51,192 bases of DNA from a virus. Lineage: Duplodnaviria; Heunggongvirae; Uroviricota; Caudoviricetes. The number at the start of each line of letters is the position of its first letter. The stretch's first letter is position 1. This document shows positions 1 to 44,169 of the stretch, piece by piece. Location: the IMG/VR virus record IMGVR_UViG_2627854098_000004, one strand, 5' to 3'. Position numbers and translations under genes: made by a program. The notes below the pieces were generated by a model. It saw only the letters and a list, made by a program, of their open reading frames with translations. It searched no databases and was not told where the DNA came from.

Positions 1-219
1 TTATGCAGCGTTCTGGCGTGAGTTTCGAATAGTCGTTTCAATCCATTCATCAATCTCACTTTCCACAAAAGCGACACACCTCGGTCCTATTTTTACCCTG
101 TCTGGAAAGTTTCCTTCCTTAATACGCTCATATAAGGTCGTACGACTGAATCCCACTCGATTTAAAACATCAGGAACGCGGATAAATCGTTTTACGCTGG
201 TTTCACTATTTTTTTTCAT
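1..219 (-). CDS. AlpA-family phage/island transcriptional regulator (DNA-binding excision-type regulator)
   Basis: ORF 1..291 on the - strand; internal ATG at 219-217 preceded by AGAGGA; helix-turn-helix-like segment RFIRVPDVLNRVGFSRTTLYERIKEGNFP typical of the AlpA family; lies outside the prophage boundary. Confidence 0.65.
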   Translation of the reverse strand: MKKNSETSVKRFIRVPDVLNRVGFSRTTLYERIKEGNFPDRVKIGPRCVAFVESEIDEWIETTIRNSRQNAA

Positions 220-435
220 TGTCTGTCCTCTTTTGTTGTACGGAATCTCTATGAGATTTCGTTTTTCTCTATGTTGTTTCGACGAGAACAATGATAGCGA
301 TTTTGCTTATGACAATTTAGGGACGTTCAAAGAAGTTTTTTTTGAAAAATTCGAAGGGGCACGGATGGAAAGATAACGGTTAACACTGGATGCGATCACG
401 TTCGCACGGAGCGAACGTAACCCTTTTTACTTGGC

Positions 436-1272
436 TTATTTTTTCTTATTCCTGTCGTCTTCTACATGCTTTTCAACAGGGGAGTCTTTCAAGTAGTTGT
501 TTTCCATCATGTAATCTTCAAGCGACTTCAGATAGCTCGCATCCGTCAGAAAAGCCATTGCTAACGGGTAATCTGTAGCCTTGAGCATTCCTTCATCACG
601 ATCGTTGTCGCTGTCCTCGTGAAGCAGCGAGGAAATCAGTGAAAGCGGGATTTTAATGCCGTTATCTTCTCCCCAGAAGATCAGGTCCATCATCGGGATA
701 AGACGATATTCAATAATTTTTCTGAACGTGCTTTTGCCAAAACGATACTCTCTTGGAACTGGAGACGTCATCTTAAGCTGCCTCTTCCATTGAGGGATCA
801 ACACTTTCAGATGTTCAATGATCTCTTCGGTTGATGCTTCTTCCAGATGAATATCGGCAGTAATACGTGAAAGATTATTAAGGGATGTCTCTTTCAGATA
901 CTCGGACAGAAATTCAGACTGGCTTAACCCAGAGAGTTCAGGCGTGGCTTCGGTTAATGCCAGCGTTTTCGCATAAAATTGCGCGTGGCTTCGTGTCGTA
1001 GGGTTTACTGCGTAGGTTCTGGCAAGCTCATGTCCAAGGGTCGCGGTATCACCACTGAAAAAGATTTCGCCTCGCAAAATTTTATAGCGGTAGTCATCCA
1101 GCAAAAGTCTGTTCAGGGTCGGTATGGTATTCCGGCTCAACAACATTCTGTAAGCCAAGATGCGCCGCTCAACCTCAACATAAAACTGCTGTAAGGTGAG
1201 TTTCTCTATCGCCTCATAGCGTTCAACATCAAACCATGCTTCCAGTGCTTTCCTGATTTCACTTCTTTTCAT
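436..1272 (-). CDS. hypothetical island-associated protein (279 aa)
   Basis: ORF 436..1329; start ATG at 1272-1270 preceded by GGAGGATGG; no motif I can assign; adjacent to the AlpA-like gene. Confidence 0.5.
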   Translation of the reverse strand: MKRSEIRKALEAWFDVERYEAIEKLTLQQFYVEVERRILAYRMLLSRNTIPTLNRLLLDDYRYKILRGEIFFSGDTATLGHELARTYAVNPTTRSHAQFYAKTLALTEATPELSGLSQSEFLSEYLKETSLNNLSRITADIHLEEASTEEIIEHLKVLIPQWKRQLKMTSPVPREYRFGKSTFRKIIEYRLIPMMDLIFWGEDNGIKIPLSLISSLLHEDSDNDRDEGMLKATDYPLAMAFLTDASYLKSLEDYMMENNYLKDSPVEKHVEDDRNKKK

Positions 1273-1550
1273 CCATCCTCCAACAATCCATTTCCTTTGA
1301 TATATCTTCACAGGATCCGTTTGGAACAATTGAAGTTCAACTGTTTTGTCATCAGAGACGGGGGAATGGCTAAGTTGTTGTTAAGAGTGTGAACTCGAGA
1401 GCATAAAAGTGGATGCCCGACGCGCGGCAAAATGGTAAAAAACAGCATCAGTAGTAAGAAAAATTGAGCGAGAGAAAGGAATTTTAATGCAGGGATTTAT
1501 GCATGACAAAATCAAAAATGCTTTGTAATTGATTGATTTTGTTGAATGAT

Positions 1551-1612
1551 TGGCGGAGAGAGGGGGATTTGAACCCCCGGTAGAGTTGCCCCTACTCCGG
1601 TTTTCGAGACCG
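1551..1612 (-). repeat. 3' 62-nt fragment of tRNA-Ser(CGA) (serU-like); candidate prophage attachment-site core, distal (attR-side) copy
   Basis: Reverse complement reads CGGTCTCGAAAACCGGAGTAGGGGCAACTCTACCGGGGGTTCAAATCCCCCTCTCTCCGCCA: anticodon loop (CGA), long variable arm, T-arm and acceptor/CCA of a class II Ser tRNA; the 5' part of the tRNA is absent (sequence diverges at 1613). Confidence 0.7.
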
Positions 1613-2470
1613 ATGATACAGAGTCGAAAAATCAAAGAGTTAAAAAATTTTCTTGGAATAAATGTCTTAAAATCGTGCACGAAAAATCAATAAATTACAT
1701 AACATTAAAGAAGAATATTCCAAGCCTTCATGAGGTCACCACCTGTTTTCTGGTGTCATTCAGACGTGATTTGCCCCAGATTGGGAAAGCAAGCTTTTTT
1801 TTCTCAGCTTATTCCGTTTTGCCTGTGTGTTGAATAATTCCACTGCAGTTATATAAAATCGGTAACGGCTAGAAATCATTCAATACTCGCACTATCGGAA
1901 GTTCACCAGTCAACCGCGGTACGTTCTTGTATACAAGGTGCCGCGGTTTCCTTAATAATTTTTAGCAGTACTGTGTGAATGATGAGCGCCCTAAATCCAT
2001 GCATGATGCGTAGTGCCTGTTGTGCATCTTTCCGCGTCTCTTTTTACTAGACCAAAACCAATGATGCTTGCAATACCATTCCCGCCAGGCTCACAGAACA
2101 AATATCCCTTATCATCGACGCATAAGCGACACTAATCAGCAAAACCTAGGATGTATTGCTCTTGCCGGCACCTCCGGGAAAAATGTTTACTGCGCAATAA
2201 ATGAAAATAGCTCATCAACGTGCCGAGAATTAGCTATGTCTTGTGAGAAAAGAAACATCAATGATGCGTACAGCCGCACGAATACTTCTTATATTTTACT
2301 GTTAAACCGATACTTTTGTATCCTAACGAATACTTGACAAGATTATCTCCATCTTGGTAGATAAACCTCAGAAGGTTTTTGACAGGTGGATTTCTGTTCA
2401 GAAGGTCAATAAAGCTCTTCTCTATCATTAGTCAAATGTACAACATGGCTGTCTAAATAACGGAGTACTC

Positions 2471-3250
2471 ATGAATTTTACGTTTACTGACTCTGGATAC
2501 ACTGAAACAAATAAAAACAATCCCCCAATCATATTCGTTCATGGATTTTTCATGAATAATGAAATGTTCAAATACCAGTTTGACGAACTAAAAGAAAAAC
2601 ATAGAGTTGTTTGCATTAATGTTCGGGGATTCGATGCTCTCTCCGAAAAAATTGAGCCATTCTCGCTCTATGACATCGTTGATGACATTTTAAACGTCGC
2701 AGACTCACTACAACTGGATAAGTTTATTTTAGGTGGAATGTCGATGGGCGGATATATATCATTACGATTTGCCCTGTCACATTCAGAACGTTTGTCAGGG
2801 CTAATCCTTATGGCAACTCAGGCAGAGCAGGATCCGCCAGAAATCGCGTCCAGTTACATGGAGTTATGTAATGGATGGCAAGACCCAATCATAAAGGAAA
2901 ATATAATCAACTCATTATTACCCGTTTTTTTCGGAAATGATATCTCTGAAGCAGAGACATGGAGACAGGTATGGCTAGGCCATAAACCTGAAAATATCAT
3001 AAAGGCCATGAATGCAATGCTGGAGCGCGACGACATTTCAGAAAGAATCCAGATAATCACAATCCCCACGCTGATTATTCATGGTGCCAACGATATGGGG
3101 ATACCATTAGAGAAAGCAATTCAAATGCACAAAATGATTGCGCATTCTAAGCTTGAAGTCATTCCCGACGCAAATCATGCTCTAAATATCACTCATGCAA
3201 AGGAAGTAAATACAGCGATAAAAAACTGGCTGCAAAACAATCATATATAA
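2471..3250 (+). CDS. alpha/beta-fold hydrolase (moron, att-proximal)
   Basis: 259-aa ORF with RBS GGAG upstream; nucleophile elbow GGMSMGG (G-x-S-x-G) and candidate acid and His residues near the C-terminus; AT-rich compared with the lambda-like genes. Confidence 0.75.
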   Translation: MNFTFTDSGYTETNKNNPPIIFVHGFFMNNEMFKYQFDELKEKHRVVCINVRGFDALSEKIEPFSLYDIVDDILNVADSLQLDKFILGGMSMGGYISLRFALSHSERLSGLILMATQAEQDPPEIASSYMELCNGWQDPIIKENIINSLLPVFFGNDISEAETWRQVWLGHKPENIIKAMNAMLERDDISERIQIITIPTLIIHGANDMGIPLEKAIQMHKMIAHSKLEVIPDANHALNITHAKEVNTAIKNWLQNNHI

Positions 3251-3287
3251 AATTAATTATAACACATATTAATTTCTTAATTATATT

Positions 3288-3313
3288 ACGCCCGTAAAAC
3301 TGTAGCGGGCGTA
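3288..3313. terminator. hairpin between convergent genes (possible bidirectional terminator)
   Basis: 8-bp stem TACGCCCG/CGGGCGTA with a 10-nt loop, in the gap between the hydrolase (+) and the membrane-protein gene (-); flanking runs are A/T-rich but not clean U-tracts. Confidence 0.35.
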
Positions 3314-3451
3314 TGTTGTCACTCTGGTAGTGCCAGCCTCTCAATATCAGGTGCAGTTGATGTATCAACACGGTTCAGCAACACCCGATACTTTTTCCAG
3401 GCTTCCAGCAACGGGGTTTCTTCCTCCGTTGCATATACAGCTCACCTTTTT

Positions 3452-3745
3452 TCACCCACGATTAACCAACAGCCAGACCAGCAGACACGCCACCACCGGC
3501 ACAGCAAAATCCATCAGGCTTGCCACATCCCAAGCACGCGGATCAAAACCGCCCCACCACGGCATATTCATTCGCTTGCCATGCCCGAACATTTCAATCC
3601 AGCGATATTCTGCCTGGGTATGTTCACGCGCAATGAAGAACGTACAACCGGCTATCGCTCCGTAAGCCCAGTTTCCGGTAAAAAGACCAACCAGTATCTG
3701 CGCAGCCACAGCACAAAGTGCATGAAGTAAGGGGCTTATATCCAT
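3452..3745 (-). CDS. small membrane protein (97 aa, two predicted hydrophobic helices)
   Basis: ORF with strong RBS AGGAGG overlapping the stop of the upstream gene; hydrophobic N- and C-terminal segments; function unknown. Confidence 0.55.
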   Translation of the reverse strand: MDISPLLHALCAVAAQILVGLFTGNWAYGAIAGCTFFIAREHTQAEYRWIEMFGHGKRMNMPWWGGFDPRAWDVASLMDFAVPVVACLLVWLLVNRG

Positions 3746-3757
3746 TATTTCCTCCTT

Positions 3758-4036
3758 TCAGCTCCATTCCCGAAGCGGTGTTTCCAGCTCCACGACATAA
3801 TCAGAGAATACAGAAACATCAAACAAGTCATCAAGAATGCGAATGTTGACAAAATAACCATCATTCCGGATACAGACAGGTTCTCCCTCTTCTGTTACCC
3901 CTGTTTCTGTGTAGGTGAAACCAATTTCATCAACTAACAGTTTATTCTGGAGGTCTTCATCTTCCGCCCAGCCAAGAGATGACAGGAAGGCCTTAAACTG
4001 CAGTTTGTCATGAAACTTCAAAGTTAAATCTTTCAT
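3758..4036 (-). CDS. hypothetical protein (92 aa) immediately downstream of the side tail fibre gene
   Basis: ORF start overlaps the stf stop by 4 nt (translational coupling); acidic protein; sits where a tail-fibre assembly gene would be but does not look like lambda Tfa. Confidence 0.5.
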   Translation of the reverse strand: MKDLTLKFHDKLQFKAFLSSLGWAEDEDLQNKLLVDEIGFTYTETGVTEEGEPVCIRNDGYFVNIRILDDLFDVSVFSDYVVELETPLREWS

Positions 4037-6096
4037 ACGACCTCTTTTAATTGCCTGTCATTTAATTCTTTATGCCATATGCGGAAATTGCGAATATGGC
4101 CAAACAGATGTCGTTCTCCAGTATTCGTCTGCCCTCCAAATCGGATATTTTTATCAGCGGTCACGCCATTATATTCACAATAAACTTCATTAACCGCTTT
4201 ACCATTTGTCACCACATGAAAGTGACCATCAGCTTTTGCAATACATCCAAATGTGGTTTTCTCTGCAAATACATCTGTCGCTGCGCTATTAACATACGAG
4301 CCTGAAGGGTTTGACAGACTCATATATAACTTACCACTACCTCTGTTGACTGCTGCAATTGCTGATTGCCCGGTATTGGCTGCTGCTATATCCCACACGC
4401 GGGGTGCGGCGTTTGGTGCAATATCCCAGTTTTTATGAATCTCAAGTAAAAAAGTAAATGGTAACTTATAAAGATTATTTCTGGTGGGGATACTAACCAA
4501 ATCACTGGCTCTTGTCGTTGCGCTGCCTCCTGAAATAATAAATGATGATACACACGGCCCATTCTCTACTTGTGGGGTGGCAAGATAAATATAGTCACCA
4601 GATACTGTTGCCCCACCCTTCTCAGGAGAATACTGTATCTGAGAGCCTATTTTTAACTCACCATCAATTGCCTGAATCGTTGCCTCTGCAAAAATCCAGC
4701 CCGTGGTCTTATCCTTCCTGACTCGTGCCGTAATTCTGCCGGCAGCACCACCTGTCATATTAATTTCAAGCGTTTGCGTATCAATGTACGCATCGCCAAG
4801 AAAAGTTGTTGCACTTCCGTCATATTTATCAAACCGGATTCGCAACCTTACCTGCAGTTCTGTTTTAAAGCGACATGAGGTTGTCACGTATTTATTATCG
4901 CCTGAGACATCAACTGACTTTGTTGCAGCAATTGATGCCATATTAATAGCCGAAGTTTGCCCAACCAGAGAATCGTTGCAGACAAACTTTCCATAAGTAA
5001 AACCAAAACTATCCGTCCCGGTTTCGGGCACATCCATGTTTGATGACTTCCCCCAGCTGGCTGGACTTTCCGAATTGAGCATGTAGTTCGTTCTTTGTCC
5101 CTCAATAAGCAGGCCATCACACTCAAATCGCGGCTCATTAATTTCCGCCGTTTTCAGTTCGCCAGATTTGTTGATATATGTTGCCGTTGATGCGCGACTG
5201 AAATTAACCTGTTTATCACTGGCGACCTGAACCACATCGTCACCAATAGCTATTTTTTTATAGCCCGGAGAAAAACCCGCAATCATATCCAGTGAATCGT
5301 TAAACGGTATCCACACATCAGGCAGCGGCGGCACTATATTCGCATAGGGCTCTGCAGTCACTTCCGCTGCGGCTTCTGCGCGGTCTGCCGCCTTTTCAGC
5401 TCGTGTCGCTGCCGACAGAGCCTCATCCTTTTTCTGCCCGGCCTTTGTTGCGTCTGCTGCAGCCTCCCGCGCTTTTGTGGTGGCGACTCCGGCATTTTCA
5501 GCGGCTGACTCTGCATTACGGCGGGAAGCCTCTTCACTGTCTGCGGAGGCTTCTTCTGACGCACGGGCATTTGTCTCTGAACGTTCTGCCGCTGTTGCTG
5601 CGTTTTGTGCGGCTGTTTTTGAAGAAGCTGCCGCTTTCGCGCTGTTACCTGCATTCGTCTCTGATGTTTTCGCCGCGTTCCTGGACGATGCCGCTGCTGT
5701 TTCTGATTTCTTTGCTGCCGCTGCGCTCTGAGAGGCGGCTTCAGCGTTGCGTGCCACATCCTCCACCATTTCCTGAAAACGGCGCAATGCCTCCGGCATG
5801 ACATCATCTTCCGTCATGGCACCGAGAAAATCATTCAGCGTCCCCGGACTGGAACCTTCATAGACGGTAATGGTCCCAACATGTGATGGCTGAGAACCCT
5901 CAATCCACAGGATGACGCTGTACTGACCATACTCAACGTCCATACTGTAACGCCCGGCTTCATCAGGATTTTCAGAGGCCACCGTGTTCACCAGTACCGT
6001 GGTGCTGTTACGCTTTGCCTTCAGTTGAATAGTGCAGTTCTGTATTGGTTTTCCCGCACCATCTTTCAGCACACCTGAGATTTTTACTGCTGCCAT
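4033..6096 (-). CDS. stf: side tail fibre protein (Stf-like; lambda-type N-terminus, Ala/Ser-rich low-complexity shaft, distinct C-terminal domain)
   Basis: ORF 4033..6102; likely start ATG 6096-6094 (MAAVKISGVLKDG, as in lambda Stf) with GGAG upstream. Confidence 0.8.
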   Translation of the reverse strand: MAAVKISGVLKDGAGKPIQNCTIQLKAKRNSTTVLVNTVASENPDEAGRYSMDVEYGQYSVILWIEGSQPSHVGTITVYEGSSPGTLNDFLGAMTEDDVMPEALRRFQEMVEDVARNAEAASQSAAAAKKSETAAASSRNAAKTSETNAGNSAKAAASSKTAAQNAATAAERSETNARASEEASADSEEASRRNAESAAENAGVATTKAREAAADATKAGQKKDEALSAATRAEKAADRAEAAAEVTAEPYANIVPPLPDVWIPFNDSLDMIAGFSPGYKKIAIGDDVVQVASDKQVNFSRASTATYINKSGELKTAEINEPRFECDGLLIEGQRTNYMLNSESPASWGKSSNMDVPETGTDSFGFTYGKFVCNDSLVGQTSAINMASIAATKSVDVSGDNKYVTTSCRFKTELQVRLRIRFDKYDGSATTFLGDAYIDTQTLEINMTGGAAGRITARVRKDKTTGWIFAEATIQAIDGELKIGSQIQYSPEKGGATVSGDYIYLATPQVENGPCVSSFIISGGSATTRASDLVSIPTRNNLYKLPFTFLLEIHKNWDIAPNAAPRVWDIAAANTGQSAIAAVNRGSGKLYMSLSNPSGSYVNSAATDVFAEKTTFGCIAKADGHFHVVTNGKAVNEVYCEYNGVTADKNIRFGGQTNTGERHLFGHIRNFRIWHKELNDRQLKEVV

Positions 6097-6105
6097 ATCC
6101 ACTCC

Positions 6106-6133
6106 ACAAAAAAGCCCGCCTGAACCGGCGGGC
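6106..6133 (-). terminator. intrinsic terminator downstream of lom
   Basis: On the - strand GCCCGCC-GGTTCA-GGCGGGC followed by TTTTTTGTGG. Confidence 0.6.
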
Positions 6134-6160
6134 TGTCATAACACTGTGTTGCCTGGTTAA

Positions 6161-6760
6161 TCAGAATTTATAACCGACACCAACGATGAAACCGTCAGTG
6201 CGCCAGTCGCCACTGCCGGAACCTTCATAAGCAATATCAATGGCCACGGATTCGGTCGGGTTAAACTGCACGCCAGCCCCCCACGCCAGAGACGTGTCGC
6301 TGTAGCGACCGTCATCACTTCCGGTCAGCACATCGTCCGTTTTCCCCTTGTTATCAGTTACGCGGAGATAATCCCCGGAGAAAGTCGACACACGGCTGTA
6401 AGCCACGCCCGCCATCGCATACGTGCTGAACCATTCATTCACGCGTACAGACGGCCCCGCCATCATGCTGAACCAGCGGTTACGCACGGAATCTTCATGC
6501 CAGCGGGTATCGCTGTAGTGCGTTTTTTGCTCATCCTCAGCATTGGCATAACTGAAGGACGTAATCAGCCCCAGCGCGTCCGTAAACTCATAACGGTATT
6601 TCACGTTAATCCCGTTCAGATTATCGCTGCCGGGAGCGTTCGTACGGGCATGAAGATACCCCGCGCTCAGTGTGGACTGATGTTCAGACGCCCATGCAGG
6701 CGCACCGGATACGGACAGACAGATGGCTGCGGACAAAATGGCTGCACATAATTTACGCAT
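6161..6760 (-). CDS. lom: Lom outer-membrane protein (Ail/Lom family)
   Basis: 199-aa ORF with signal peptide; near-identical to lambda Lom as I recall it; position between J and stf as in lambda. Confidence 0.85.
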   Translation of the reverse strand: MRKLCAAILSAAICLSVSGAPAWASEHQSTLSAGYLHARTNAPGSDNLNGINVKYRYEFTDALGLITSFSYANAEDEQKTHYSDTRWHEDSVRNRWFSMMAGPSVRVNEWFSTYAMAGVAYSRVSTFSGDYLRVTDNKGKTDDVLTGSDDGRYSDTSLAWGAGVQFNPTESVAIDIAYEGSGSGDWRTDGFIVGVGYKF

Positions 6761-6827: not shown

Positions 6828-9800
6828 TCAGCTAATCGTGATGCCTGCAGTGGCTTTCTTCATCACAACAACCAGCAAATCGCTGATACTTGCTGTGGGA
6901 TACCAGCCATTTACCCACCATGCTGATACAGAAAACTCCAGCGTCATGTCGCCGCGACCAGCAGGCATATCAATAACACCACTGTAAACCAGCGTATTAT
7001 CCATCGCGGTACGGTTATAAATTTCAGCACCGTTTTTCTTCACTATCAGGCGGCATGACGAATAAGTATCGCTGTTCTCCCGCTCATGTCTGGCACCGCT
7101 GAAAGCCACCGCCGGAATAACAATCTGCCGGTTAAACGGCTGATCGTCATAAACCCTGACGGTAATGGTTCCTGATGGCCAACGCTTCGGTGCACGGGAG
7201 TCACGAGGGAAAGCCTTACCCACTGTTTTAACGAGATCGCCTTCAATCTGGTTTGCAGACAGTTTCCCTCTGATGACACAGTTCTCGTTAATGGTGACAT
7301 TATTGAGCGTGCCGGTATTCGCCGTGATGGCTCCACTGATATCCGCATTGCGGGCTGTCAGCCTGCCATCCGGCGTCAGGGAAAACGTCGGAGGATTGCC
7401 GGATGACGTGATGCTCACCGCAAACAGTCGCTTCAGGAACACGTCGTTCATGAACAGCTGATTCCCCTGCGCCACAAACAGCGGCGTGGTGTTGCCGTTC
7501 TCCGGGGTAATCATCGCAATGCGATCGGCCTGCAGCAGAATGTTACTCAGGGTCTGACCATCAACATCCTCAATCCCCGCACCAATCCCGGCCACATAGG
7601 GAATACCGTTTTTTGTTTTCTGCACCTTCAGCATATACATGGCATTCAGCTCATTGCGCGTGTCTGACTGAACCCGCTGGATTTGCTGTATGGTCACGGC
7701 CTGGTCACCCAGCTTTTTATCCGTGGTCGAGGTAATTTCACTCCCTTTTTTATCCACGTACTGGCGGACCTGTGCTATCTGTCGGGCGTTTTCTGACTGC
7801 CCCTGGCTGACAGTCTGTGAGATTTCACTGCTCACCCGGTCCACTTTCTGGCTCACCTGCGCGATGGCCAGTGTCTGATCCTCATTCTTTTTCGCAACCA
7901 GCTGCGTGAGGCTGTTTTCCGCCTTCCCGATTTTCCGGGTCACTTCTGCGATATCCGTGTCCATCCGCTGACGGATATCTTCTTCCAGTTGCGTGACCTC
8001 CGTACGCAGCGCTGAAGCATCAATGCGCTCTTTCAGTGCCTGACCCAGAAGCGTCTCATCTATCAGCCCCCGGAAAATTTCCAGATACCCTTCACCATCA
8101 TTGCTGGGCTGCCCGCTGGCTTCCACAAAAGCAGATTTTCCCACCAGGTTGACGCTTCGCACGTAAAACCAGAAATCCGTTCCCGGCTTAATCCGGCTCC
8201 CCTGGACAGTCCACTGACTGCCGGTCCCCAGATAACGGGCAGATTTTTCCACCTGTGCTGTGTTCGTGATGCGTTTTTTCTGAGAACCAGAATTCAAACT
8301 GTACCGTCGGGTCATACACCGCAAGACGCGGGACCGCCGTTATCTGAAAATACCCCGGCGTCAGCTCAATGGTGGCGGGTTTTGCAGGTGCGTTAATCCG
8401 GAACGATACCGACGCCGGATCGCCCTGCTGTCCCCGGGCATTTACCGCCCGGACCGTCAGCGTGTAACGCCCCAGCGCCAGCTGCCTGAAGCGGTAAGTG
8501 GTTTCCGCCGTCCGGGCCGTGCTGACCAGCCGCTCACTGCCGTCATCCGCTGTTACGGTCAGACGGAGCAGGAAGCTCACGCCCTTCACCACCTTCGGCG
8601 TGTCCCAGCGCGCCAGCACCTGATATTCCCCGCTGTCTGCGGTGACTTCGGCGGTCAGGTGCTGCACCGCTGGCGGCGTGACACCATTCACCGTGCCGCT
8701 CTGGTCGCCGTCAAAGTGCGCTCCGTTATCCACGATGGCCTCTTTTTCCGGTACATGCTGCACGGCGGTGATGGCATACGTGCCGTCATCGTTCTCACGG
8801 ATACTCACGCAGCGGAACAGGCGCTGGCGCAACGTCGGCAGCTTCAGTCCCCATACGCTGTATTCTGCAACGCCGTCAGGAACACGGCTCACTTTTACCT
8901 TCACGCCGTCGGTGACGGACTGGACCTCCACGCTGACCGGATTCCCCTGTCCGTCAGCCAGGCTTATCAGCGTGGTGCCGGAGGATGGCAGCGTGATTTC
9001 ACGGTCGAGCGTCAGTGTCCGCGTCTGGTTGTTCACCGCCAGCACGCGCCCGCCGATGCTGATCCCCGCATAGTCATCATCACAGATTTCAATGACATCG
9101 CCCGGTACATGGCGAAGCCCTTCTGCACCCACGCTGAAGTCCACGGTCTGCGTTTCCAGCAGCTCCGTTTTAATCAGCCACAGCCCGGCGCGGTGTGCCT
9201 GCCCCCGGCTGGTACAGCCAAAGGCATCCATCTTCGTGACGTTACGACCGTAACGGGCAATGGCCTGCGTGTCCTCCACAAGCTCTGTCGCCGTCTCCCA
9301 GCCGTTATCCGGGTCAATCCAGTTCACCTCAACGGCATTATGGCGGTCTTTCAGGGCGCTGAAGCTGTAGCGGAACGGCGCGCCATCATCCGGCATCACC
9401 ACATTACTGCGGTTATAGGTCCACACCTTATCCGACGGTCGGTCCTGCACGAATGTCAGCGTCTGCCCGTTCCATACCGGCATACAGCGCATCGCCGAGC
9501 AAAAATCACTGAGCACATCCCACGCCTTGCGCTGTGTGGTCAGGTACGCATTACAGGTGATGCGCGGCTCCGTGCCGCCAAAGCCGTCCGGCACTGACTG
9601 GTCGCAATTCTGGCCGATGACATACAGCGCCCATTTATCCACATCTGCCGCACCAAGACGTTTCCCCATGCCGTAGCGCGGATGGGTCAGCATATCCCAC
9701 AGACACCAGGCCATGTTGTTGCTGTATGCTGGCTTAAACGTTCCGTCCCAGATACCGCTGTATTGCCGCGTCTGCGGGTTATAGTTCGACGGCACCTGCA

Positions 9801-10527
9801 GAATGCGCCCGCGAAGATGATAATTACGGCTCACCTGCTGGCTGCCGAACTGCTCCGAGTCCACCTGTACGCCGACCAGTGCCGTGTTCGGGTAGCACTG
9901 TTTCACATCGATGATTTCGGTGTATGACGACCAGAGCGTTTTGTTCTGCAACTGGTCTGTGGTGCTGTCCGGCGTCATCCTGCGCATCCGGATATTAAAC
10001 GGGCGCGGCGGCAGGTTATCCACCACCACCGAGGCCAGATACTGCGACGTGGTTTTGCCCTTAATGGTGATGTCTTTTTCCGTCACCCAGCCACCGTTAC
10101 GTTGAATCTGAACCAGCAGGCGGACTTCCGATGGATTCCTGTCCCCCTTTGAGGTGGTTTCCACCAGTGCCTGCACGCCGAAAGTAAAACGCAGACGGTC
10201 AATGTTTGCCGACGTGATGGTCCGGGTGATCGGCGTGTCATATTTCACTTCTGTACCGAGCACCGTCTCGGAGCCGGAGGATTCAAATCCCTCCGGCGGT
10301 GTCTGCTCCTGCTCACCGGCCCGGAACACCACCGTGACGCCGAATATATTGGTATTCCCCTCACTGTCCAGCACCGGCGTACTGTTCAGCAGCACGCTTT
10401 TTAATCCATCCACCGGACCTTCAACCGGCCCTTCGCTGATGGCGTCTATCACGCTCAGCATCTGGGATGATTTCAGGTTGTCCTTCGCTTCGCGCGGGGT
10501 ATGCCCCTTACTGCTGCCTTTACCCAT
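6828..10527 (-). pseudogene. J: tail tip/host-specificity protein J, split by a frameshift in a homopolymer at 8274-8279
   Basis: ORFs 8188..10527 (lambda J-like N-terminal 740 aa) and 6828..8324 (J C-terminal part) overlap; the reading frames join at the plus-strand T6 run 8274-8279 (A6 in the coding sense); removing one base restores [17 protein letters not shown]. Confidence 0.8.
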
Positions 10528-26219: not shown

Positions 26220-26897
26220 ATGTCCATCATTTTTAATGGACACTATCGTATGAAACACCGGACCTGGATCACTGAAGCTTTACGTCTTCACTTTGAAGAA
26301 CATTTACCCCGGGTTGTGGCCGGGCGTCGCCTGGGTGTACCAAAATCAACAGTTTGTAGTATGTTCGTGCGCTTTCGGAGAGCTGGCCTTTCGTGGCCTT
26401 TGCCCGCAGGCATGTCGGAGCAGGAACTTGATGCCTGCCTTTACGGACAATTTTCCACGGTACCAGTCGTACGTCCTGAAAGCACCGTTATATCCGAAGC
26501 CCCCGTGGTAAAAAAACGTCCCCGGCGGCCCAACTTCCCTTATGAGTTTAAAATCGCCTTAGTGGAGCAGTCACTGCAGCCCGGAGCCTGTGTGGCGCAG
26601 ATCGCCCGGGAAAACGGAATCAACGATAACCTGCTCTTCAACTGGCGCCATCAATACCGGAAAGGTGGCCTGCTGCCTTCCGGAAAAAATATGCCGGCAC
26701 TGCTTCCCGTGACGTTAACGCCGGAGCCGGATAATAAAATCCCGGCCCCCGCACAGGAACCAGAGCAGATAAATACACCGTCCGACAGTCTGTGTTGTGA
26801 GCTGGTTCTGCCGGCCGGAACTCTCAGGCTTAAAGGTAAACTGACGCCGGCGTTATTACAGACACTTATCCGCGAAATAAAAGGGAGCAGCCACTGA
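26220..26897 (+). CDS. IS66-family accessory protein TnpA (start uncertain)
   Basis: ORF has an IS66 orf1-like C-terminal part (PNFPYEFKIALVEQSL...LLFNWRHQYRKG); the N-terminal extension may not be translated. Confidence 0.6.
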   Translation: MSIIFNGHYRMKHRTWITEALRLHFEEHLPRVVAGRRLGVPKSTVCSMFVRFRRAGLSWPLPAGMSEQELDACLYGQFSTVPVVRPESTVISEAPVVKKRPRRPNFPYEFKIALVEQSLQPGACVAQIARENGINDNLLFNWRHQYRKGGLLPSGKNMPALLPVTLTPEPDNKIPAPAQEPEQINTPSDSLCCELVLPAGTLRLKGKLTPALLQTLIREIKGSSH

Positions 26898-27244
26898 TGA
26901 TATCTCTCCCTGCAGGTTCGCGTATCTGGCTGGTTGCAGGTATCACCGATATGCGAAATGGCTTTAACGGCCTGGCATCAAAAGTTCAGAACGTCCTGAA
27001 GGATGACCCGTTCTCCGGACACCTGTTCATCTTCCGCGGACGCCGGGGTGACCAGATAAAAGTGTTGTGGGCTGACAGTGACGGACTGTGCCTCTTCACC
27101 AAACGCCTGGAGCGGGGCCGCTTCGTCTGGCCAGTCACCCGTGACGGCAAGGTGCACCTTACTCCGGCTCAGTTATCCATGCTTCTTGAAGGTATCAACT
27201 GGAAGCACCCGAAACGAACGGAACGCGCTGGAATCCGCATATAA
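26897..27244 (+). CDS. IS66-family TnpB
   Basis: 115 aa; [27 protein letters not shown] signature. Confidence 0.85.
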   Translation: MISLPAGSRIWLVAGITDMRNGFNGLASKVQNVLKDDPFSGHLFIFRGRRGDQIKVLWADSDGLCLFTKRLERGRFVWPVTRDGKVHLTPAQLSMLLEGINWKHPKRTERAGIRI

Positions 27245-27263
27245 CCCGTTGTAAAGTGAGGAT

Positions 27264-28835
27264 ATGGACACCTCACTTGCTCATGAGAACGCCCGCCTGC
27301 GGGCACTGTTGCAGACGCAACAGGACACCATCCGCCAGATGGCTGAATACAACCGCCTGCTCTCACAGCGGGTGGCGGCTTATGCTTCCGAAATCAACCG
27401 GCTGAAGGCGCTGGTTGCGAAACTGCAACGTATGCAGTTCGGTAAAAGCTCAGAAAAACTTCGTGCAAAAACCGAACGGCAGATACAGGAAGCACAGGAG
27501 CGAATCAGCGCACTTCAGGAAGAAATGGCGGAAACGCTGGGTGAGCAATATGACCCGGTACTGCCATCCGCCCTGCGCCAGTCTTCAGCCCGTAAACCGT
27601 TACCGGCCTCACTTCCCCGTGAAACCCGGGTTATCCGGCCGGAAGAGGAATGCTGTCCTGCCTGTGGTGGTGAACTCAGTTCTCTGGGATGTGATGTGTC
27701 AGAGCAACTGGAGCTTATCAGCAGCGCCTTTAAGGTTATCGAAACACAACGTCCGAAACAGGCCTGTTGCCGGTGCGACCATATCGTGCAGGCACCAGTA
27801 CCTTCAAAACCCATTGCACGCAGTTATGCCGGAGCGGGGCTTCTGGCCCATGTTGTCACCGGGAAATATGCAGACCATCTGCCGTTATACCGCCAGTCAG
27901 AAATATACCGTCGTCAGGGAGTGGAGCTGAGCCGTGCCACACTGGGGCGCTGGACAGGTGCTGTTGCTGAACTGCTGGAGCCGCTGTATGACGTCCTGCG
28001 CCAGTATGTGCTGATGCCCGGTAAAGTCCATGCTGATGATATCCCCGTCCCGGTCCAGGAGCCGGGCAGCGGTAAAACCCGGACAGCCCGGCTGTGGGTC
28101 TACGTCCGTGATGACCGTAACGCCGGTTCACAGATGCCCCCGGCGGTCTGGTTCGCGTACAGTCCGGACCGGAAAGGTATCCATCCACAAAATCACCTGG
28201 CCGGTTACAGCGGTGTGCTTCAGGCCGATGCTTACGGTGGTTACCGGGCGTTATACGAATCCGGCAGAATAACGGAAGCCGCGTGTATGGCTCATGCCCG
28301 GAGAAAAATCCACGATGTGCATGCAAGAGCGCCCACCTACATCACCACGGAAGCCCTGCAGCGTATCGGTGAACTGTATGCCATCGAGGCAGAGGTCCGG
28401 GGCTGTTCAGCAGAACAGCGTCTGGCGGCAAGAAAAGCCAGAGCCGCGCCACTGATGCAGTCACTGTATGACTGGATACAGCAACAGATGAAAACACTGT
28501 CGCGTCACTCAGATACGGCAAAAGCGTTCGCATACCTGCTGAAACAGTGGGATGCACTGAACGTGTACTGCAGTAATGGCTGGGTGGAAATCGACAACAA
28601 CATCGCAGAGAACGCCTTACGGGGAGTGGCCGTAGGCCGGAAAAACTGGATGTTCGCGGGTTCCGACAGCGGTGGTGAACATGCGGCGGTGTTGTACTCG
28701 CTGATCGGCACATGCCGTCTGAACAATGTGGAGCCAGAAAAGTGGCTGCGTTACGTCATTGAACATATCCAGGACTGGCCGGCAAACCGGGTACGCGATC
28801 TGTTGCCCTGGAAAGTTGATCTGAGCTCTCAGTAA
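27264..28835 (+). CDS. IS66-family transposase TnpC
   Basis: 523 aa; zinc-ribbon CxxC...CxxC and IS66 transposase core. Confidence 0.85.
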
Positions 28836-32159: not shown

Positions 32160-32585
32160 AAGCTGTGTGACGAAGTAACCACTCTTAACAGCATAACCAA
32201 TTTTTTACGTACGTAAACTACTAAATGATATTTGTGAGAATGCCACCGAGTGTTCAAAACACCACCACAAATGCATAAGAAAACTTCAACAAATAACCAG
32301 TTAATAATTTCCGATGTTATTTTTAGTTTGTTTAAATTAAGCTAAAGAATTATAGAGCACTTATAAATAAGTGCCATTAATATAAATTAGCTAATAGATT
32401 TATTTTTGTTCAGACAAGAGCCATGAATAGGATTAGATAGAAAAGGTTCAGATAAAAATAGAGATCTACTTCACAAATTAAATGAGAAACTAAAACTTAC
32501 ATCTTGAAATAATCACATTGATTAGATGAATATTTATCGCGCAGTGACATCATTTTTTAATAATAGTTCAAAAAAAGGGCGTACA

Positions 32586-33668
32586 ATGAAAAAATTAACA
32601 GTGGCAATTTCTGCTGTAGCTGCATCAGTACTGATGGCGATGTCTGCTCAGGCAGCTGAAATTTATAATAAAGACAGTAACAAGCTGGATCTATACGGGA
32701 AAGTTAATGCCAAGCACTACTTCTCCTCTAATGATGCAGATGATGGTGATACTACTTATGCCCGTCTTGGCTTCAAAGGTGAAACCCAAATCAACGATCA
32801 ACTGACTGGTTTCGGTCAGTGGGAATATGAATTCAAAGGCAACCGTGCTGAATCTCAAGGTTCTTCCAAAGACAAAACCCGTCTTGCATTTGCAGGCCTG
32901 AAATTTGGTGATTACGGCTCAATCGATTACGGCCGTAACTACGGTGTAGCATACGACATCGGTGCGTGGACTGACGTTCTGCCAGAATTCGGTGGTGATA
33001 CCTGGACCCAAACAGATGTGTTCATGACTGGTCGCACTACTGGTGTTGCAACTTATCGTAACAACGACTTCTTTGGTCTGGTCGATGGCCTGAACTTTGC
33101 TGCTCAGTATCAGGGTAAAAATGACCGCACTGACGTAACTGAAGCCAATGGTGATGGTTTCGGTTTCTCCACTACTTATGAGTATGAAGGATTCGGCGTG
33201 GGTGCAACCTATGCTAAATCAGATCGCACTGACGGTCAGGTCGCCTATGGTAAGAGCAAATTCAATGCCTCCGGCAAAAATGCGGAAGTATGGGCTGCAG
33301 GCCTGAAATATGATGCGAACAATATCTATCTGGCTACCACATATTCTGAAACTCAGAATATGACCGTTTTTGGTAATAACCATATTGCAAACAAAGCACA
33401 AAACTTTGAAGCAGTAGCACAATATCAGTTTGACTTCGGTCTGCGTCCATCTGTTGCTTACCTTCAGTCAAAAGGTAAAGACCTTGGTGTTCATGGTGAC
33501 CGAGACTTAGTCAAGTATGTCGATGTCGGTGCTACTTACTACTTTAATAAAAACATGTCCACTTTTGTTGATTACAAAATCAACTTAATTGACGATAGTA
33601 AGTTTACCAAAACAGCTGGTATTGATACCGACGACATCGTCGCTGTAGGTCTGGTTTATCAGTTCTAA
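32586..33668 (+). CDS. phage-borne general porin (OmpC/OmpF/NmpC-Lc family)
   Basis: ORF 32526..33668; start ATG 32586 with RBS AAGGG; signal peptide ...AMSAQA then AEIYNKD, C-terminal F; between Q and S on the opposite strand, as for nmpC in DLP12. Confidence 0.9.
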
Positions 33669-41835: not shown

Positions 41836-43374
41836 TTATTCAGTCGGCAGTGCTACGCGCCAGGGGAGCAGTTCGCCGACCCGGTTTATCGGCCAGTCGG
41901 CTATGACGTCAAGGACATAGCGGAGGTAGCTTTCTGGCTCCACTCCGTTCAGTTTGCACGTCCCGATCAGGCTGTACAGCAGCGCTCCCCGCTCTCCTCC
42001 ATGATCCGAACCGAAGAACAGGTAGTTTTTGCGGCCCAGACTGACCATCCGCAACGCATTTTCAGCGATGTTATTGTCCGCCTCAGCCCAGCCATCATCT
42101 GCATAGTACGTCAGCGCCGGCCACTGGTTCAGGGCGTATGCGAACGCTTTCGCCAGTTCTGAGTGTCGCGACAGGGTTTTCATCTTTTCACGCAGCCAGC
42201 TTTCCAGGGATTTCAGCAGCGGTTTCGTTTTCAACTGACGTTCGGCAAGGCGCTGCTCCGCCGTCATTCCCCTTATCTCTGCCTCGATGGCGTACAGTTC
42301 GCCGATCCGTTTCAGCGCTTCCTCCGTCAGGGCTGACGGGGTGCGAACGTGCACATCGTGGATTTTACGGCGGGCGTGAGCCCAACAGGCGGCTTCCGTT
42401 ATCCGGCCATCCCGGTACAGCTCGTTGAACCCGGCGTATGCATCCGCCTGCAGTACACCACTGAACCCCGCAAGATGGGTCTGCGGATGGATGCCTTTTC
42501 TGTCCGGGCTGTAAGCGAACCACACCGCCGGCGCCAGCGTTGACCCGGCGTTACGGTCGTCACGAACGTAGGTCCATAACCGCCCGGTCTTCGTTTTCTT
42601 ATTGCCTGGCAACAGCACCGGGACAGGCGTGTCATCAGCATGGAGCTTACCGTCAGTCAGCACATAGCCATGAAGCGCCTCTTCCAGCGGAGACAGCAGC
42701 CGGCAGCATGCATCCACCCAGCCCGACAGCAGTGAACGGCTCAGCTCCACACCTTGCCGGCCGTATATTTCTGACTGGCGATACAGCGGGGTGTGCTCTG
42801 CATACTTCGAGGTCAGCACGCGGGCCAGCAGCCCCGGTCCGGCGATACCCCGCTCGATGGGCCGCGAAGGTGCAGGTGCCTGCACGATGGCATCGCACTG
42901 AGTACAGGCATGTTTTTCCCGTACCGTCCGGATAACCCGGAAGGCGCTACGCATCAACTCCAGCTGTTCGGCGGTATCCTCGCCCAGATAGCTCAGTGAA
43001 CCGCCGCAGTTCGGGCAGCACGGCGCCGCAGGCAACAGTCGCTTTTCGTCACGGGGTAGTGATTCAGGGAACGGCTTACGGGTGCGGGTCTGACGCAACG
43101 GACGCTGTACTGCCGGGTCATACACCCTACCAGTCAGCGTATCGCTCTCTTTCTGAAGCCGGTTCAGATCGGCTTCCATTTGTGCGATACGGCGGGAGAC
43201 TTTTTCGGAACGACTGCCGAAGTTCATCCGGCGGAGTTTATCCAGCTGCGCCTGCAGATGGTCTATTTCGCGCTCCCGGTTGCTCAGCTTTTCCTGCAGG
43301 GCGTGGATCAGCGCTTCCTGTTCGGCCAGGCGCTGTTTCAGCAGGAAGATGTCGTCAGAAGAGATGTCGTTCAT
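41836..43374 (-). CDS. IS66-family transposase TnpC
   Basis: 512 aa; IS66 transposase with zinc-ribbon CxxC motifs. Confidence 0.85.
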
Positions 43375-43423
43375 AAGCCCGTATTTTACCGGGCTTATTC
43401 TGTGACAACCAGGATAAAGAGAT

Positions 43424-43771
43424 TTACAGCATGGTCAGGGAGGTCAGCAGCCGCTTAGGCTGTCGCCAGTCGATACCTTCCAGCAGCATCGCCAGCTGCG
43501 CCTGTGTAAGGAACACTTTGCCATCACGGGCTGACGGCCAGGCGAAGCGCCCACGCTCCAGCCGTTTGGTCAGGAGGCACAGTCCGTCACCGGTGGACCA
43601 CAGCAGTTTAACCTGACTGCCGCTGCGGCCCCGGAAAATGAAAACATGGCCGGACATGGGATCGTCTTTCAGCGCCGTCTGTACTTTCGCAGCCAGGCCG
43701 TTGAAGCCATTTCTCATATCAGTGATACCGGCAACCAGCCAAATTTTGGTCCCGGAAGGTAACGGGATCAT
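43424..43771 (-). CDS. IS66-family TnpB
   Basis: 115 aa; [27 protein letters not shown]. Confidence 0.85.
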
Positions 43772-44169
43772 CGCTTCAGTTCCTGTATCAGCAGAGTCAG
43801 GAGCTTTTCGCTGACATTGCCATTGAAGCGGAGCGTCCCGTGCCGGAACGTTACCTCACAGCTGATACTGAGGGTTTCCGGGTCCTCTGCGAGCGATTCT
43901 GGCTGTTCGGCAGCTGCATCGAGAGTCACAGGAAGTAGCTGGGGGCTCTCTGAAGAAGGTAATAGCAGCTTTCCCTCGCGCCATTGTTGTCGCCATTTGA
44001 ACAACAGATTGGCGTTAATGCCATTTTCAAGAGCAAGTTTTGAGATGGATATCCCGGGTTCACAGGAGGCAGCAACGAGCTGCTGTTTAAATTCGGGAGG
44101 ATAATTAGGGCAGCCTTTTCGCCTGCCGGGAGTCACATTTTTCTGCATATCTGACACTTTGGTTCCCAC
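43768..44169 (-). CDS. IS66-family TnpA
   Basis: 133 aa; ATGA-type overlap with tnpB. Confidence 0.8.
   Translation of the reverse strand: MGTKVSDMQKNVTPGRRKGCPNYPPEFKQQLVAASCEPGISISKLALENGINANLLFKWRQQWREGKLLLPSSESPQLLPVTLDAAAEQPESLAEDPETLSISCEVTFRHGTLRFNGNVSEKLLTLLIQELKR

Follow-up and report, generated by a model that had tools for sequence, protein, structure and literature searches.

A phage 21-type side tail fiber cassette in an Escherichia coli prophage and the two small genes downstream of its fiber gene

The fiber gene and its mosaic structure

A stretch of 51,192 nucleotides of phage DNA (IMG/VR record IMGVR_UViG_2627854098_000004, class Caudoviricetes; ‘the window’ below refers to this entire stretch) carries on its minus strand a side tail fiber gene, stf, followed by two small genes encoding a 92-residue acidic protein and a 97-residue membrane protein, which are referred to here as p92 and p97. 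An earlier reading of the sequence (the original prediction) described these three consecutive open reading frames, and noted that two small genes of unknown function, each coupled to the gene before it, stand in the place usually held by the fiber chaperone gene tfa; all three frames are present as claimed, both couplings were borne out, and both small proteins are uncharacterized. The 2.9-kb cassette region matches Escherichia coli APEC IMT5155 at 100% identity, and the window is a prophage of that strain; the region also displays approximately 96% nucleotide identity to genes 22-24 of phage 21 (OL657228, CPT_21_22 to CPT_21_24), with Perceval, ev017, mEp460 and others as further close relatives. 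In the phage 21 genome announcement (PMC9119081) the same three genes are found in the same order, annotated as ‘side tail fiber’, ‘hypothetical protein’ and ‘putative membrane protein’; the cassette of that phage is followed by sitABCD cargo, while that of the window is followed by an alpha/beta hydrolase gene and other cargo. At least 80% of the whole region is present in 450 of 5426 complete E. coli genomes, the p97 gene in 1871 of them (34%, with up to seven copies each), and the p92 allele class of this window in 1126. The locus is thus ordinary, common in E. coli and already deposited, with phage 21 as its classical example, and the notion that the module might be unusual did not survive the comparison. 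In the annotations listed, p92 and p97 both appear as ‘hypothetical protein’. A literature search covering phage 21 stf, protein accessions, and FIG and PHROG identifiers returned nothing on either protein and no published function for their phage 21 counterparts; a paper on the Stf of Gifsy-1 treats a protein that is 51% identical to the Stf of Ur-lambda.

The stf gene lies in the late tail operon, downstream of J (6828-10527, minus strand, frameshifted) and then of an Ail/Lom gene (6161-6760, minus strand), which is the position of Stf in lambda-type phages. It extends over 4033..6102 (689 residues, beginning with GTG) or 4033..6096 (687 residues, beginning with ATG); the ATG at 6096 is the choice both of RefSeq and of the original prediction, and the GTG at 6102 is also open. 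The lambda-like N-terminus and the Ala/Ser-rich shaft that had been recognized from the sequence were both recovered. The N-terminal anchor (residues 1-134, 5701..6102, GC content 0.52) matches the Pfam family phage_tail_N (PF08400) with an E-value of 6e-64 and the ‘Tail fiber protein’ chain of PDB entry 9E7M with an E-value of 1.3e-46, and the shaft that follows it (residues 135-265, 5308..5700) is rich in Ala, Ser and Glu (34% Ala and 11% Ser across residues 111-262) and is covered by PHROG tail fiber families. In its anchor, its shaft and its position after J and lom, as well as in the presence of a gene for a small acidic protein immediately downstream of the fiber gene, the locus resembles that of Stf and Tfa in Ur-lambda.

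The C-terminal domain of the fiber had been described as non-lambda and had not been recognized; it is indeed non-lambda, and profile searches identified two domains within it. Residues 332-532 score 53.9 bits with the NCBIfam model NF048003 (‘phage head spike fiber domain’), which has a curated cut-off of 36, and residues 300-546 match the head spike fiber Rcc01080 (GhsB, PDB 6TB9) of the gene transfer agent (GTA) RcGTA with an E-value of 4.8e-9, in a region assigned here to residues 266-546 (4465..5307). Within the terminal region (residues 547-689, 4036..4464, with the last residues GHIRNFRIWHKELNDRQLKEVV), residues 563-684 match Laminin_G_3 (PF13385) at 26.2 bits, just below the gathering threshold of 27.6; homologous heads from two other loci (L216 and L217), which align with the Stf head end to end, have recorded PF13385 hits. 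By these matches, the C-terminus of Stf is a head of approximately 420 residues composed of a GTA head-spike-fiber-like, lectin-type domain and a ConA/Laminin_G_3-like domain. The distal part of the Ur-lambda fiber differs in kind: in place of a lambda/T4 gp37-like tip dependent on an intact Tfa, the distal 420 residues here correspond to GTA_spike_fiber and LamG-like domains, which would form a globular lectin-type head.

The RcGTA head spike fiber is a lectin-like, capsule-binding attachment protein that is anchored by its N-terminus and binds capsular polysaccharide (PMC10218006), and because that homologous fiber does so, the head of Stf probably binds a surface polysaccharide as well, in a reversible manner. 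The two proteins share the domain that corresponds to Stf residues ~300-546, and differ in its setting: in RcGTA it belongs to a 325-residue decoration of the particle head, whereas in Stf it follows a lambda anchor and shaft in a single protein, continues into the ConA-like domain, and is paired with p92. In phages 1W, 3W, 4A7 and Lambda_4C10, IS66-like mobile-element genes separate stf from p92 and p97 (for example, at 499-2915 of the 1W locus, L005), and this insertion removes the last ~44 codons of stf.

The boundaries of these units are visible in both composition and conservation. GC content steps from 0.585 in the shaft to 0.44 and 0.415 in the two head domains and 0.42 in p92, and then to 0.53 in p97. 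Relative to a prophage of E. ruysiae (L007), nucleotide identity is at least 83% (and mostly 90-100%) throughout the anchor and shaft, 28-71% in the head, and at least 95% from position 3980, in the middle of p92, to approximately 3440, through p97 and into a remnant of tfa, falling to 81% by 3380. When the window is set against a further locus (L008), conservation is seen in the first of the two head domains, but neither in the second nor in p92. The 154 IMG/VR loci that were compared behave as mosaics of units that can be exchanged one by one (the anchor, each of the two head domains, p92 and p97), of which p97 is the most constant (75-100% identity).

The original prediction had found no recognizable tfa gene. 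No intact copy follows stf, but a lambda-type 3' remnant of 38 codons (3319..3432, minus strand; a RefSeq pseudogene annotation that agrees with a reading of the sequence) is found directly downstream of p97. These last 38 codons, which are all that survives of a gene that is complete in Ur-lambda, mark the right-hand recombination junction of the replacement; their 5'-most part differs from phage 21, to which the match begins at window position 3376. A partial match to the Rfam family IS009 (3356-3454, minus strand; E-value 2e-14, with a score of 68.6 bits that does not reach the gathering score of 117) overlaps the remnant, and may reflect the conserved 3' end of tfa, not a small RNA gene. 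The arrangement points to a modular replacement inside a lambda-like stf-tfa locus, in which the lambda anchor and Ala-rich shaft would have been retained, and the distal part of stf and nearly all of tfa replaced by three units (the head, p92 and p97).

A terminator-like, GC-rich hairpin followed by a T-run (6113..6134, minus strand; an 8-bp stem with seven GC pairs) is located between lom and stf, and a terminator is annotated at the matching spot upstream of stf in phage 21, which itself has no lom gene. The hairpin would isolate stf, p92 and p97 from the transcription of lom, so that only late transcripts that have been antiterminated would extend into these genes. A crude promoter scan returned sites at chance level and none upstream of p97, and an equally crude scan revealed no clear terminator downstream of it; because p97 is preceded by no promoter-like site and the hairpin lies upstream of stf, late expression is the default expectation for p97.

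The acidic protein p92 and its partnership with the head

The p92 gene (3758..4036, minus strand, GC content 0.42) begins with an ATG that overlaps the TGA stop codon of stf (ATGA) and is preceded by AAGAGG. Its product is acidic, as had been predicted (pI 4.17, with 20 Asp and Glu residues versus 8 Lys and Arg residues), and its AlphaFold2 model (pLDDT 90) displays a beta-alpha-alpha-beta4 arrangement. Both ends of the protein are conserved, with MKDLxLKF at the N-terminus and P.R.W at the C-terminus. The protein belongs to phrog_1361, which is filed under ‘unknown function’; no relatives were found in Pfam, NCBIfam, PADLOC (E<=1) or PDB profile searches, comparison of the model with PDB folds yielded nothing significant (the best match, to PII or ribosomal-protein-like folds, had an E-value of 0.05), and matches in BFVD were restricted to uncharacterized phage proteins. 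Profile matches to proteins of 650-2700 residues were rejected as spurious repeat matches to TPR or PKD repeat proteins. Both p92 and p97 are nevertheless real genes, conserved in hundreds of phages and prophages, and both are under purifying selection (with a dN/dS of 0.33 for p92 and of 0.15 for p97).

Membership of the Tfa family, the outcome that the original prediction itself had named as counting against its reading of p92, was rejected: p92 displays no Pfam hit to Caudo_TAP (PF02413) at E<=5 and no NCBIfam hit, and its comparison with lambda Tfa by hhalign gave a probability of 0.2%. Like a tfa gene, p92 is located directly downstream of a fiber gene and is coupled to it; it differs from the Tfa of Ur-lambda in being only 92 residues long and in being without sequence or profile similarity to that protein. 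The cassette as a whole resembles lambda stf-tfa in joining a fiber to a coupled small helper, but its helper is not a Tfa and its tip is not that of lambda.

The association of p92 with the head was found to hold well beyond E. coli. In the 154 IMG/VR loci the order of genes is always head, p92, an optional second fiber, and p97, and no complete E. coli locus has a head without a member of the p92 family as the very next gene (the apparent exceptions hold a divergent 89-residue member). Four distant relatives of p92, recovered by an exhaustive HMMER search, all follow a protein of 416-1711 residues that ends in the same head module. The reverse test, which begins with the head, found a p92-family gene to be the next gene in 71 of 73 loci, the heads of which are 24-99% identical, and the start of p92 overlaps the stop of the head gene by 4 or 1 nucleotides in 73 of 75 loci. 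In Comamonas prophages, a p92-like domain (phrog_18574, E-value 3e-11) is found between a head-type fiber and p97; in Comamonas testosteroni (L027, 6432-6998) it forms the N-terminal half of a 188-residue protein, the C-terminal half of which matches other PHROGs of unknown function. Even in phages that differ greatly from one another, heads of this type are almost never found without a p92-family gene.

The nature of that partnership is suggested by two further observations. Co-variation of p92 with the head, by which a tip-specific chaperone might be recognized, was not found: p92 proteins that are 90-100% identical are encoded beside heads that are 40-45% identical, a pattern that rules out a tip-specific chaperone in the classical sense. 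Secondly, approximately one quarter of the related E. coli loci contain a second fiber gene between p92 and p97, encoding 227-345 residues (for example, at 2956-3993 of L006, minus strand; 6286-6990 of L010; and 5307-5990 of L195). The 234-residue and 345-residue forms of this second fiber carry a Peptidase_S74 intramolecular chaperone domain and share only their first ~30 residues (MATSTVIPxDIxTLKxDVSK), a pattern also seen in the docking peptides of branched receptor-binding systems that employ Peptidase_S74 fibers; the window differs from such systems in having no second fiber, and where one is present, p92 or the head may provide its docking site. A class of p92 proteins at 50-55% identity is always followed by a second fiber gene, a regularity that suggests an adaptor role as an alternative, and the second fiber, in turn, always occurs with this class or with the still more divergent 89-residue member.

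In the mechanism proposed here, the stop/start overlap would allow p92, a small, acidic and presumably cytoplasmic alpha/beta protein, to be made in step with the head. It would probably act as an assembly or adaptor factor that is distinct from Tfa and recognizes a conserved feature of the head instead of its variable surface, and in some relatives it may help to attach the second fiber. A role as a head-associated assembly or adaptor factor is thus inferred from an association that is itself directly observed.

The membrane protein p97 and its family

The p97 gene (3452..3745, minus strand, GC content 0.53) begins 12 nucleotides past the stop codon of p92, in a spacer (3746..3757) that contains its AGGAGG ribosome-binding site. 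The description of its product as a membrane protein with a strong ribosome-binding site agrees with this motif and with a model of three long helices (pLDDT 94). The protein corresponds to phrog_1443, again of the category ‘unknown function’. Its family comprises 577 clusters when searched with a single query and at least 2294 when searched with a profile, with no name and no Pfam domain among the 120 hits listed. The concern, raised in advance, that the reading frame might lack conservation in relatives proved unfounded: residues H8, W49, G56, R58, P62, W64, D68, W72 and P83 are invariant across bacterial classes, and a nearly invariant loop (REHTQAEYRWI..FG.G.R.NMPWWGGFD.R.W) retains its motif down to 34-45% identity in classes other than that of the host. 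Alphaproteobacterial members end in strongly basic C-terminal tails; by the positive-inside rule, which gives a partly ambiguous result, the C-terminus is predicted to be cytoplasmic and the Trp-rich loop periplasmic. Comparison of the model with PDB folds returned nothing (E>2), and a PDB profile search was likewise negative. A resemblance of the WWGGFD loop to the haem-handling ‘WWD’ motif of CcmC-type proteins was rejected, with an hhalign probability of 0.3% against E. coli CcmC.

The genomic contexts of this family extend far beyond the fiber. In gamma- and betaproteobacterial prophages, as well as in one alphaproteobacterial locus, p97 closes the tail module; it is the last tail-module gene in Escherichia, Comamonas and Acidovorax prophages, with or without a head-type fiber, and it directly follows a head-type protein in one Chelativorans locus. 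In five Aeromonas genomes (L004, L011, L013, L017 and L018), p97 has a homologue in a syntenic region of the chromosome with no phage genes nearby, in the order pirin, p97, RIO1 kinase and then two genes similar to lipid A acyltransferases (LpxL/M-like), and its divergence matches that of its neighbors. In alphaproteobacterial assemblies it is found beside genes for PNPase, LigA, HerA or AMP nucleosidase. Since the family is widespread, independent of the fiber and also present outside phages, p97 is not a fiber chaperone, and the same distribution argues against the host-range role that had been offered for it. The two small genes are not a single unit: p92 belongs to the head, and p97 belongs to an independent and much more widespread family. 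That p97 acts on the host envelope (through entry or exclusion, or through the handling of envelope polysaccharide), and not on the fiber, is suggested with low confidence.

Alternative explanations, prophage context and significance

The interpretation preferred here is that of a phage 21-type side tail fiber cassette of a lambdoid prophage, with a polysaccharide-binding head, a p92 that serves that head, and a p97 that is directed at the envelope; it is assigned a probability of roughly 55%. Several considerations weigh against it: (i) the case for polysaccharide binding is one of analogy; (ii) the link between p92 and the head is a genomic association, from which physical contact is extrapolated, and the absence of co-variation is unlike the behavior of classical tip-specific chaperones and would also fit a linked function unrelated to the head; (iii) a strongly acidic protein of 92 residues could instead be a DNA mimic or an anti-defense protein; (iv) the topology of p97 is derived from the positive-inside rule, and its conserved loop itself carries five Lys or Arg residues; (v) searches of Pfam, NCBIfam, PADLOC (E<=1) and PDB (by sequence and by fold) yielded no homology of p97 to characterized proteins; and (vi) the scan that detected no promoter belonging to p97, itself a crude one, lends no support to expression during lysogeny, on which exclusion would depend.

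Exclusion was among the functions named in the original prediction. In that explanation, p97 is a superinfection-exclusion or entry-blocking moron, comparable to HK97 gp15, T4 Imm or Cor, that is made by the prophage and denies related phages DNA entry or the function of a receptor. Positions adjacent to tail fiber genes are classical for exclusion genes (cor in phi80 and N15, llp in T5, and gp15 in HK97), and p97 occupies such a position; its small size and inner-membrane location are in keeping with such a role, its conservation does not follow that of the variable fiber parts, and its GC content of 0.53 contrasts with 0.42 in its neighbors. It shares with HK97 gp15, Cor and T5 Llp the character of a small envelope protein encoded in or next to tail or receptor-binding genes, and differs from them in its three helices and invariant Trp-rich loop, in showing no sequence similarity to them, and in having no promoter of its own that could be detected. 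HK97 gp15 also has chromosomal relatives (YebO). A moron in the sense of Juhala and Hendrix has its own promoter and terminator and a composition unlike that of its neighbors; p97 differs from p92 in GC content (0.53 versus 0.42), but by a promoter and terminator scan that was crude it has no promoter-like site in a spacer of just 12 nucleotides and no clear terminator after it, and in a lysogen the terminator-like hairpin ahead of stf isolates these genes. It is without a match in PADLOC, Pfam or the functional categories of PHROG, and the housekeeping-like vertical inheritance of its homologues in Aeromonas would be odd for an exclusion factor. Exclusion by p97 finds no direct support, either from a promoter or from homology to known exclusion or defense proteins, and is considered unlikely.

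A role in lysis, in which p97 would be a class I-type holin or antiholin acquired from phages with lysis genes directly after their tail fiber genes, is more doubtful still. The protein is small, with three hydrophobic helices for which an N-out/C-in topology is plausible, its late expression without a promoter of its own would fit a lysis protein, and in eight loci of betaproteobacterial type it lies just upstream of lysis genes (endolysin and/or Rz-like spanin or membrane-protein holin candidates). In all eight, however, another small membrane reading frame that fits a holin better is located between p97 and the endolysin (five of these loci were read; the other three have membrane proteins of 125 and 99 residues), and the candidacy of p97 as the holin of such prophages was rejected for that reason. 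The lysis genes of S/R/Rz type in the window are 27 kb away (~30.8-32.0 kb), the E. coli p97 ends in ...NRG, with no charged tail of the kind that holins usually have at the C-terminus, its loop is invariant where holins evolve fast, its PHROG category is ‘unknown’ instead of lysis, and its family includes a syntenic core gene of Aeromonas and members beside PNPase or LigA in alphaproteobacteria. In an Acidovorax metagenome-assembled genome (L030), p97 is followed by an endolysin gene (7513-8184) whose product begins with a hydrophobic segment rich in Gly and Ala, as is typical of signal-arrest-release (SAR) endolysins; a 67-residue holin candidate with a single transmembrane segment precedes this endolysin.

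Equally improbable is an explanation in which p92 is unrelated to the fiber, and is an acidic DNA-mimic or anti-defense protein that has hitch-hiked behind stf. A net charge of about -12 (at a pI of 4.17), a small single-domain alpha/beta fold without a characterized structural neighbor, and the failure of p92 to co-vary with the head are all consistent with it. Near-obligate adjacency and a stop/start overlap with a single head module, across bacterial classes and across heads that are 24-99% identical, would be unexpected for a free-standing anti-defense gene; p92 would moreover be expressed late, with structural genes, while anti-defense genes are typically early, and the p92-like domain of Comamonas is part of a larger tail-module protein. 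Very improbable, finally, is the suggestion that p92 and p97 have no specific role here and survive as conserved flanks whose homology serves the swapping of heads, in a copy that may be decaying, as p97 and the tfa remnant do form a nearly constant right flank beside a variable head and p92, and the prophage is degraded elsewhere (with a frameshifted J and two IS66 elements), but selection acts at the protein level (dN/dS of 0.15 for p97 and 0.33 for p92), the reading frames are intact in hundreds of loci, and the p97 motif is conserved to 34-45% identity in other bacterial classes.

The remainder of the prophage provides the context for these genes. J is split into overlapping reading frames (8188-10527 and 6828-8324) that RefSeq describes as ‘frameshifted’, and this copy of the prophage is probably tail-defective as a result. 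Two IS66-family elements (26220-28835, plus strand, and 41836-44169, minus strand; HTH_Tnp_1, TnpB_IS66 and DDE_Tnp_IS66) within the prophage are further evidence of decay. A cargo region of low GC content (0.36-0.43) occupies positions 1-3300, and a gene for an alpha/beta-fold hydrolase within it (2471-3250, plus strand) converges on the fiber cassette. At ~1553-1612 (minus strand), the 3' ~60 nucleotides of a tRNA-Ser-like gene (T-arm, variable arm and CCA end) were recognized by eye, at a site where ARAGORN found no complete tRNA; the piece is probably the remnant of an att site between the cargo of the lambdoid prophage and another element, and the element beyond it carries AlpA-like (1-291) and DUF6387 (436-1329) genes. 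A general porin gene (Porin_1, E-value 2e-151) is found at 32526-33668 (plus strand), beside the lysis genes, and porin homologues also occur near p97 in Silvania and Leclercia loci.

The adsorption range of lambdoid phages, like that of lambda-based delivery particles, is determined by the side tail fibers, and between about one fifth and one third of complete E. coli genomes contain a cassette of the type described here. Within it, lectin-type heads are swapped freely while the anchor on one side and the right flank on the other stay constant, and as the head almost never travels without the 92-residue gene, that gene probably must be moved along with it when heads are transplanted. The present analysis adds that the head can be identified, that a remnant of tfa and the boundaries of the mosaic can be located, that head and p92 form a near-obligate pair, and that p97 belongs to an independent, widespread family of membrane proteins with members outside phages; the points concerning the head and p97 overturn no current understanding. 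The p97 family, with at least 2294 clusters in several proteobacterial classes and neither a Pfam model nor a name, represents a gap in annotation.

A broader interpretation is put forward tentatively, as one that may well prove incorrect. In it, p92 would represent a new class of accessory protein, distinct from Tfa, for heads of the lectin type (GTA-spike/LamG), perhaps acting as the adaptor for a second fiber and so giving rise to branched fibers, and p97 would represent a widespread, un-annotated family of inner-membrane proteins of ~100 residues, with what may be a His/Glu/Asp site and with a periplasmic loop rich in Trp, that performs a bacterial envelope function exploited by siphophages. 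If that interpretation were correct, siphophages of several proteobacterial classes would carry p97 at the end of the tail operon in order to manipulate an envelope function, for example by blocking entry or by altering a polysaccharide receptor pathway during late infection.

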